In this document: positions 9,131-9,463 of the stretch, one piece after another | Layout of the letters: each line of letters begins with the position of its first letter | Position numbering within the stretch: the first letter of the stretch is position 1 | DNA from: a virus | IMG/VR virus record: IMGVR_UViG_3300045988_115079 | Length of the DNA: 45,653 nucleotides | Direction: 5' to 3' (one strand) | Translations under genes and position numbers: made by a program | Notes under the pieces: model-generated | What the model saw: only the letters and a program-made list of their open reading frames with translations | What the model was told of the DNA's origin: nothing | Databases searched by the model: none

Positions 9131-9168
9131 GGAAAAATAAAAATCGGCGCTCCACTCGGAACGCCGAT
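9131..9168 (-). terminator. Rho-independent terminator upstream of the accessory cassette
   Basis: atcggcgctcc-actc-ggaacgccgat hairpin, followed on the minus strand by ttttatttttccc. Confidence 0.7.
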
Positions 9169-9189
9169 AAAAAAAGTTGCAGGAAAGTG

Positions 9190-9218
9190 TTGACAGATGA
9201 TGTAAATTGTGTTATTAT
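9190..9218 (+). promoter_or_regulatory. Strong sigma70-type promoter of the orphan RNA gene
   Basis: TTGACA (9190-9195), 17-nt spacer, extended -10 TGtTATTAT (9210-9218). Confidence 0.75.
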
Positions 9219-9224
9219 CATCTT

Positions 9225-9414
9225 GCAAGGACAACCGAACAATTTCTACTATAGCAGATTCCAAAAATAAACAATCCTTGCAAGTCTGCTTCATGCGTAA
9301 ACATGAGGTATGTGAGTTGAAACGCCTATAACGGCAAAATTAGTTGAGGTAATGGCATTCGGTTGGTCGAAACACTTCAACAGGGAAAGAGGACTGCAAG
9401 CAGCCCTCTTTTTT
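9225..9414 (+). ncRNA. About 190-nt non-coding RNA containing a Cas12a crRNA-handle-like element (AAUUUCUACUAUAGCAGAU, 9241..9259)
   Basis: Promoter and terminator with no credible ORF in between. The handle-like 19-mer starts about 16 nt after the predicted TSS. Leader CUUGCAAGGA (9222-9231) is complementary to UCCUUGCAAG (9275-9284). Confidence 0.6.
9385..9414 (+). terminator. Rho-independent terminator of the ncRNA
   Basis: aaagagg-a-ctg-caag-cag-c-cctcttt hairpin followed by a T run ending at 9414. Confidence 0.7.
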
Positions 9415-9423
9415 CTATTCCGG

Positions 9424-9463
9424 AAAAAAACAAAAAAATTGCCGAGGGCGTTCAACCCTCGGC
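9424..9463 (-). terminator. Rho-independent terminator of the lysis operon
   Basis: gccgaggg-cgttcaa-ccctcggc (9441-9463), followed on the minus strand by aatttttttgttttttt. Confidence 0.85.

Follow-up and report, generated by a model that had tools for sequence, protein, structure and literature searches.

The virus record IMGVR_UViG_3300045988_115079 of IMG/VR, whose 45,653 nucleotides (nt) were analysed here as one stretch (the window), raises the question of what is produced from a short unit on its plus strand (9190-9414), which runs from a promoter to a terminator and holds no conserved open reading frame (ORF). The predicted RNA of ~190 nt carries two tandem mimics of CRISPR repeats, each of a different type: the 5′ handle of Cas12a (type V-A) CRISPR RNAs (crRNAs), hereafter module 1, and a type I-C repeat, hereafter module 2, with a conserved 3′ domain behind them (Table 1). 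We suggest that this RNA probably loads Cas12a and the type I-C Cas proteins with abundant non-immune RNA and belongs, as a heterotypic member, among the RNA anti-CRISPRs of Racr type.

The V-A and I-C repeat mimics of the predicted RNA

The DNA of module 1 is the sole match in the window to the handle motif AATTTCTACTNNNGTAGAT at two or fewer mismatches, and it was matched in 0 of 100 shuffles in which the dinucleotides were preserved. By our own arithmetic, matches with at most one mismatch to the 16 fixed handle bases are expected by chance ~0.001 times in 2 x 45.6 kb. Homologues of the unit were sought in viral contigs, by a genome scan and a metagenome scan, and in contigs encoding close relatives of the protein of 139 amino acids (aa) from the adjacent gene. 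They stem from independent metagenomes and comprise 11 distinct versions of the whole unit: that of the window (found also in L001 and L082) and those of L044, L045, L056, L083, L084, L085, L106, L107, L112, and L113. Nine of the 11 have a perfect handle, AATTTCTACT-NNN-GTAGAT, with an invariant stem and with the loops ATA (2), GTA (2), GTC (1), and ATT (4). Such constancy of the stem beside a loop that is free to vary marks selection for the structure of the Cas12a handle. The L044 handle carries two substitutions, and in the window a U-to-C change at 9255, which most relatives lack, leaves the 5-bp stem with the mismatch A9248.C9255. This allele recurs in the independent assembly L082, and therefore C9255 is not a sequencing error; the mismatch may attenuate the V-A module of the window's own copy. 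Two matches of the 16-mer GGTATGTGAGTTGAAA (L049 and L050) lie inside coding DNA and were set aside as chance.

Table 1. Features of the RNA gene and of its surroundings (positions are those of the window)
Feature	Position	Strand	Details
Minus-strand intrinsic terminator upstream of the RNA promoter	9133-9168	-	hairpin 9168-9143, 11-pair stem and T-run
Sigma-70 promoter	9190-9218	+	TTGACA (9190-9195), 17-nt spacer, extended -10 TG-n-TATTAT to 9218; consensus 11/12
Predicted transcription start	~9224-9226	+	
Clamp stem P1, 5′ arm	9222-9231	+	CUUGCAAGGA; complementary to 9275-9284
Cas12a crRNA 5′-handle mimic (module 1)	9241-9259	+	AAUUUCUACU-AUA-GCAGAU, DNA AATTTCTACTATAGCAGAT; from motif match, homologues, and real V-A arrays
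Pseudo-spacer	9260-9284	+	A-rich linker 9260-9274, then P1 3′ arm 9275-9284
Type I-C repeat mimic (module 2)	9284-9323	+	GUC, 9-bp hairpin (9287-9295/9302-9310), U9311, GUGAGUUGAAAC (9312-9323)
Conserved 3′ domain	9324-9384	+	GCC/GGC hairpin 9324-9335 and long hairpin P4 (9343-9350/9374-9381); RNAalifold
Intrinsic terminator of the RNA gene	9385-9414	+	RNAfold hairpin and U-run
Minus-strand terminator of the late/lysis operon, convergent on the RNA gene	9430-9464	-	hairpin 9464-9440 and T-run
Tyrosine integrase	5134-6321	+	
139-aa gene, no assigned function	8629-9048	-	
Gene at the late-operon end	9469-9699	-	ends just upstream of the minus-strand terminator 9430-9464
Endolysin of the lysis cassette	10367-11368		domains ELLD, PG_binding_1, SH3_3

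The exact handle occurs also in the cas12a loci of Ruminococcus and Clostridium metagenome-assembled genomes (MAGs). In two loci with Pfam-confirmed cas12a, the arrays number 19 repeats (L059) and 16 repeats (L062), whose ends read AATTTCTACT(ATT or GTT)GTAGAT, and L062 additionally holds one separate handle; in L053 the handle stands immediately upstream of cas12a. Directly upstream of cas12a in L051 (Ruminococcus sp. LCP21S3_E8) we found a TTGACA-17-TATAAT promoter, a handle with the ATA loop, a spacer-like stretch and a terminator, which is the layout published for the CreR autoregulator (bioRxiv 10.1101/2024.10.29.618823). This unit is preceded by an array with the repeat CTATAAATCTATCCAAACTGGATTTTAAA (L051:4527-5213), and in the cas12a leader of the same locus TTTA-CGGTTGT matches the first 7 nt of the spacer-like stretch. 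Guide arrays engineered for Cas12a employ the ATT- and GTC-loop 19-mers as functional direct repeats (PMC11055879).

Behind the handle, the 3′ arm of the pseudo-spacer is complementary to the leader of the RNA. The clamp stem P1 formed by the two arms encloses the V-A handle in the single-sequence minimum-energy folds of 10 of the 11 variants and in the RNAalifold structure of seven sequences; in the RNAalifold structure of 11 sequences it gives way to a pairing, itself weak, of the I-C handle with the 5′ leader. We attribute this loss to misalignment by MAFFT, because the single-sequence folds recover the clamp. Across the variants the pseudo-spacer measures 16-26 nt (16-18 nt in most) and its P1 arm is conserved, while the seed proximal to the protospacer-adjacent motif (PAM) differs in nearly every lineage (UCCAAAAAUA, UCAAAAUAAU, UAAAAAUCCC, GAAAAGUUCC, and GAAAAAAUGC). 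The pseudo-spacer therefore behaves as a linker plus a stem arm and not as a conserved guide.

Module 2 reads GUC-UGCUUCAUG-CGUAAA-CAUGAGGUA-U-GUGAGUUGAAAC. Its terminal 12-mer, GTGAGT[T/A]GAAA[C/T/A], is the most conserved block of the RNA and was found in all 11 variants; the exact 12-mer of the window is unique there and equals the 3′ ends of GTCTACCTCTGCGTGAGGTAGTGAGTTGAAAT (I-C:10443) and GTCGCGCCCCATGTGGGGCGCGTGAGTTGAAAC (I-C:84390) in the SRUFinder tables. The same 3′ end is known from the I-C repeat ATCGCTCCCCGTATGGGGAGCGTGAGTTGAAAT of Bifidobacterium thermacidophilum (PMC4521832), and real I-C repeats end in GTGAGTTGAAAY. When the 40-mer of the window is aligned with gaps to the catalogued repeat I-C:10443, 29 of 32 positions are identical (z = 7.6 against shuffles) and 8 extra nt are left in the window's copy. 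The hairpin covaries, with the arms UGCUUCAUG/CAUGAGGUA, UACCACGCG/CGCGUGGUA, UACCCCUU/AAGGGGUA, and CAUCGUGCG/CGCACGGUG, and it is also formed, with an unpaired handle behind it, in the RNAalifold structure of seven sequences. The GTC start, the GC-containing hairpin and the 11-nt handle U-G-[G/A]-[A/G]-UUGAAA-[C/U] all fit type I-C, whereas the hairpin exceeds that of real I-C repeats by 5-18 nt, one extra nucleotide stands between stem and handle, and the total length is 37-50 nt against 31-34 nt in the catalogued I-C repeats compared. Because of this length and of the extra nucleotide before GUGAG, we consider module 2 a mimic rather than a standard I-C repeat.

In the 3′ domain, hairpin P4 shows compensatory changes across the homologues (RNAalifold, which also folds the terminator), and the domain matches nothing in Rfam or among the listed solitary-repeat sequences. 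A third repeat mimic, considered within this domain (GTTGAGG...CAAAC), was dropped since it has no match among the published solitary-repeat sequences.

The elements predicted to govern transcription are conserved together with the modules. The promoter is nearly invariant in the four homologues compared and is found in all 11 variants. The plus-strand terminator was absent from the list of a simple scanner because its stem has one A.C mismatch, which is repaired in homologues by compensatory changes (GAGGAC/GUCCUC and GAGGGC/GCCCUC). The minus-strand terminator upstream of the promoter is kept along with the RNA in L045, L056, and L106 and is a predicted insulator. A 40-codon ORF (9352-9474) exists in the window; it is cut to four codons in L083 and L085 and has lost its start codon in L107, and every other ORF is likewise unconserved across the homologues, so the coding hypothesis was rejected. 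Rfam searches of the window and seven related loci at gathering and permissive thresholds revealed no family in the RNA and nothing near threshold, and a search for tRNA and transfer-messenger RNA genes found none. An engA hit of Rfam at 9404-9499 (-), with 29 bits against a gathering threshold of 46, extends over both terminators into the beginning of the neighbouring region and was dismissed as very probably spurious.

Much of this anatomy had been read correctly in a preliminary description made from the letters of the window: the near-consensus promoter, the intrinsic terminator and its minus-strand neighbours on both sides, the lack of a credible ORF, the look-alike of the Cas12a handle, and the leader arm that could close a stem around it. 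Two of the comparisons proposed there, with homologous loci of related phages and with repeats of real V-A arrays, revealed the 19-mer conservation reported above and the exact handle in Clostridia cas12a loci (L051, L053, L059, and L062). That description overlooked the ~130 nt of conserved RNA downstream, including the I-C mimic, and its account of the handle, sound as regards the match, missed that the V-A repeat, ~36 nt when whole, is represented by no more than its processed 19-nt handle and that the U-to-C change, which weakens this handle, is foreign to most relatives.

Known RNA anti-CRISPRs and composite units of other phages

RNA anti-CRISPRs (Racrs and Cracrs) are a recent discovery, and those directed at types V-A and I-C have been experimentally shown to work (PMC10651486). 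The closest V-A counterparts are RacrVA1-3, which act on the Cas12a of Moraxella bovoculi (Camara-Wilpert et al. 2023, PMC10651486). Like the window RNA, they are non-coding V-A repeat mimics borne by phages or prophages outside CRISPR-cas loci, with a presumed titration of Cas12a. However, they are full 36-nt repeats with 34-36/36 identity, whereas the window RNA has the processed handle only, which is held within a clamp stem and continues into a repeat mimic of another type and a 3′ domain; the phages also differ, being of the Clostridia type for the window RNA and from Moraxella for RacrVA1-3. In both modules the protein-binding structure typical of Racrs is retained, since the V-A stem-loop and the I-C hairpin with its single-stranded handle are predicted in 10 of the 11 variants.

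CracrVA1, a validated V-A Cracr that keeps only the ~20-nt handle of the repeat, supplies a crRNA-like guide that turns the Cas effector into a repressor of its own genes (bioRxiv 10.1101/2024.10.29.618823). With CracrVA1 and the host CreR (Liu et al., bioRxiv 10.1101/2024.10.29.618823) the window RNA shares a single degenerate repeat in which the Cas-binding handle of ~20 nt is conserved, a short spacer-like segment after it, a promoter of its own, and the context of gut Clostridia (Ruminococcus); the CreR-like unit of L051 even has a handle identical to that of the window RNA family. The differences lie behind the handle. In CracrVA1 a terminator directly follows the pseudo-spacer, 10 seed nt of which match the cas12a promoter, whereas the window RNA combines an unconserved seed with a self-paired pseudo-spacer, behind which comes an I-C mimic.

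For module 2 the nearest relatives are RacrIC1 and the I-C solitary repeat units (PMC10651486), which have the same GTC-hairpin-GUGAGUUGAAAY layout; I-C solitary repeats with the 3′ end of module 2 are abundant in gut viral contigs. Unlike RacrIC1, module 2 has a 1-nt insertion, a longer hairpin and a gapped identity below the 90% of SRUFinder, and it forms part of a longer RNA, in which a V-A handle precedes it. SRUFinder defines a solitary repeat as an intergenic match on a mobile element with at least 90% identity to and at least 90% coverage of a known repeat; full repeat matches at most 100 bp apart are discarded as arrays, and a partial match beside a full one is taken as a mini-array (PMC10651486). 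In the window, the V-A match extends over 19 of ~36 nt, the 29/32 identity to the I-C repeat is reached only with gaps, and a mimic of another type starts 25 nt after the first, within the 100 bp required to be free. These shortfalls in coverage, identity and solitariness explain why such an element could have been overlooked. The literature that we searched describes no transcript that combines handles of different CRISPR types.

Perfect V-A handles were scanned in viral contigs, and 123 handles were read among the matches listed. In 40 of these 123, an I-C-like 12-mer, G[T/C]GGATTNAAAC, stands at most 70 nt upstream of the handle, mostly at 14-15 nt, while windows drawn at random from these loci have such a 12-mer in only 0.26% of cases; 28 of the 40 add an I-B-like repeat further upstream. 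Composites of this kind were found in 40 or more viral contigs, and some of these contigs, at the least, come from Bacteroidota phages; a Bacteroidota-type promoter (TAnnTTTG) is seen at L120, L174, and L229. Under one terminator they present an I-B-like repeat, an I-C-like repeat (GTC-hairpin-GTGGATTNAAAC), 14-15 nt, the V-A handle and a self-hairpin, as in L128 (handle 7308-7326, -), L134, L120, L163, L204, and ~35 more loci among L114-L232. In L163 and L204 two I-C-like repeats around a 20-nt spacer precede the V-A unit. The I-B part of L128 contains the 28-mer TTTTAATCGTACCTTTATGGAATTGAAA, an I-B solitary repeat listed by SRUFinder, and the “composite” class also includes L071 (a Prevotella MAG), where the I-C-like 12-mer GTGGATTAAAAC lies upstream of the V-A handle.

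The composites (L128, L134, L120, L163, and others) resemble the window RNA in that repeat mimics of mixed types share one terminator and the pseudo-spacer after the V-A handle is self-structured, forming a covarying hairpin. They differ in having I-C before V-A, the I-C variant GTGGATTNAAAC, often an additional I-B-like module and, in at least some, the Bacteroidota-type promoter, and they have no sequence homology to the window RNA outside the mimicked motifs. Since module order, I-C variant and promoter all differ, the composites are read as convergence. The arrangement of the window (V-A handle, 40-70 nt, RTTGAAAY) is rare in the viral collection, where it was found in L045 only.

Possible mode of action and rival explanations

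If the RNA acts as an anti-CRISPR, its strong constitutive promoter would drive a structured transcript of ~190 nt in which the two repeat mimics stand in tandem. The host Cas12a would bind module 1, with the handle displayed in the loop of the clamp stem, and would probably cleave just 5′ of A9241, and the I-C proteins Cas5c, Cas7, and Cas8c would bind the hairpin and the single-stranded handle of module 2. Both effectors would thus be filled with non-targeting, self-paired RNA instead of immune crRNAs, the self-paired pseudo-guide may keep the captured Cas12a inert, and the phage or prophage would be shielded from two CRISPR systems at once. While the anatomy of the RNA, its conservation and covariation, its identity to real repeats and the independent analogues were observed, we infer its transcription, Cas binding, processing and inhibitory effect.

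Several points weigh against this scheme. The genome is circular and has no host flanks, so that a co-residence of V-A and I-C systems in the host is an assumption. The stem mismatch of the window and the two handle substitutions of L044 suggest that the V-A module is dispensable or decaying in some lineages, and 19 of the ~36 nt of the V-A repeat are all that is present. Real Cas proteins might reject the I-C mimic with its 1-nt insertion and longer hairpin, and ~60 nt of the conserved 3′ domain are unaccounted for by a decoy.

The same observations may be explained otherwise, each time with a lower probability. Regulation of the Cracr type, in which crRNA-like guides within the RNA would partially match the host promoters of cas12a and/or the I-C cas genes and repress these genes, is unlikely. 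It agrees with the conservation of only the ~20-nt handle portion of the V-A repeat, as in CreR and CracrVA1, with the CreR-like unit that has an identical handle upstream of cas12a in L051, and with a pseudo-spacer of 16-26 nt, which is compatible with binding without cleavage. Yet the PAM-proximal seed varies between lineages, the pseudo-spacer provides with its 3′ half a conserved arm of an intramolecular stem and is not directly followed by a terminator, and co-arrayed Cracrs are reported to be always of one CRISPR type (bioRxiv 10.1101/2024.10.29.618823). A Cracr pseudo-spacer is recognised by at least nine PAM-proximal nt that match a cas/creT promoter or a CreR/CreA spacer; no such match, and nothing relevant in a TTTV-plus-seed search, was seen in four cas12a loci, which need not be those of the host. 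Still less probable is a structured phage small RNA unrelated to CRISPR (e.g., one regulating lysogeny or host mRNAs) with a coincidental or vestigial likeness to repeats. The 3′ domain and the clamp stem are indeed foreign to CRISPR repeats, no Rfam family was recognised, and the handle is degenerate in the window copy and in L044. Coincidence, however, would have to account for two independent repeat-type matches within one 100-nt stretch, for a conserved stem with a varying loop, for a nearly invariant I-C 12-mer, and for the association of V-A with I-C in unrelated phages (40/123 among the matches listed against 0.26% by chance).

The preliminary description had left the choice between an RNA decoy of Cas12a and a mini-array; the comparative evidence backs a Racr-type decoy and turns against the mini-array. 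Viral mini-arrays that hijack the host Cas12a or Cascade for cutting a competing phage or plasmid are known (PMC11656645), and a handle followed by ~25 nt has the layout of a crRNA. In the window, however, a single V-A handle has an I-C-like repeat as its neighbour in place of a second repeat of the same type, and the spacer is variable in its seed, self-paired, and short in most variants (16-18 nt). The comparison of the spacer with phage sequences, a check proposed in the preliminary description, gave no better-than-chance match: both pseudo-spacers had chance-level matches only (E >= 0.7) in 50,697 phage records, and no protospacer was found there. This explanation is very improbable.

Beyond the single locus, we tentatively consider, with somewhat less than even confidence, that heterotypic repeat-mimic RNAs may form a widespread class, arranged as V-A/I-C in this family of Clostridia-type phages or as I-B/I-C/V-A in other phages, at least some of which are of Bacteroidota, which would disarm class 1 and class 2 systems and whose self-paired pseudo-guides would leave the effectors inert. 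Racrs and Cracrs are described in the literature searched as single repeats or as arrays of one type, while this locus and the parallel composites suggest that a single small phage transcript can unite handles that belong to different CRISPR types and classes. Elements of this kind would systematically escape the published rules, which demand 90% coverage and discard full repeat matches at most 100 bp apart as arrays. Should the RNA prove active, nature would have supplied a compact “off-switch” that acts on Cas12a and I-C alike, its self-paired pseudo-guides would offer a design principle for inert Cas loading, and its modules could serve as a marker predicting the CRISPR types of a phage's host.

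The phage genome and the variable slot

The two ends of the window share identical 55 nt (1-55 and 45599-45653), and it is therefore a closed circular genome with a unit length of 45,598 bp; it represents a complete temperate gut phage without host flanks. The RNA gene occupies a “moron” position between the 139-aa gene and the end of the late operon (9469), the late region of this phage being on the minus strand. The nearest named relative of the integrase, with 60% identity, is from a Bacillota bacterium, the other homologues being unnamed or distant. A Bacillota (Clostridia) host would fit the sigma-70 type of the promoter and the endolysin domains. The bin label “Odoribacter” of L056 was treated as mis-binning, because the sigma-70 promoter and the PG_binding_1/SH3_3 endolysin argue for a Bacillota host. 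Among deposited phage genomes we found no relative of the RNA locus or of 20 kb of the window phage.

Related phages encode the 139-aa protein with 80-91% identity, and their slot beside it holds differing promoter-driven small RNAs. Those of L096 (2110-2400, -), L102, L103, and L008 have a hairpin followed by the canonical I-C end GTGGATTGAAAT, and those of L003 and L006 represent another variant, ending ...CTGGGGATGAACC; in L008 and L003 the slot RNAs lie at about 3100-4000 (-). In L086-L095 and L098-L105 the slot has a ~60-nt hairpin RNA with a CCCC loop, which covaries (L086:2260-2500, -).

Between a 76-aa gene and the RNA slot, the L086-L113 cassettes contain variable small orphan ORFs of 48-129 aa, to which L106 and L107 add ORFs of 160 and 215 aa. 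Behind the orphan ORFs comes either an HTH_3 gene (168-172 aa) or a 52-aa gene whose ribbon-helix-helix (NikA-like) match is weak and sub-threshold; the small orphan ORFs themselves matched no known family. The circumstantial evidence of this gene order, which resembles that of acr-aca operons, suggests that the slot may be a variable anti-defence-like island.

Just after the integrase gene, at ~6361-6400 (-), there is a sequence like a tRNA 3′ end, ...ATTGGTTCGAATCCGATCGCCGGTACCA (T-arm, acceptor strand, and CCA), which is probably the core of the phage attachment site attP. It is bracketed by two copies of AAAGTTGCAAAAAAGTTGCACAA (6263-6290 and 6485-6512), and a similar sequence stands just upstream of the RNA promoter (9168-9195). 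Near the left end of the window, the ORF 166-906 (-), which has a DUF7666 domain, contains seven tandem 27-nt repeats (331-591).

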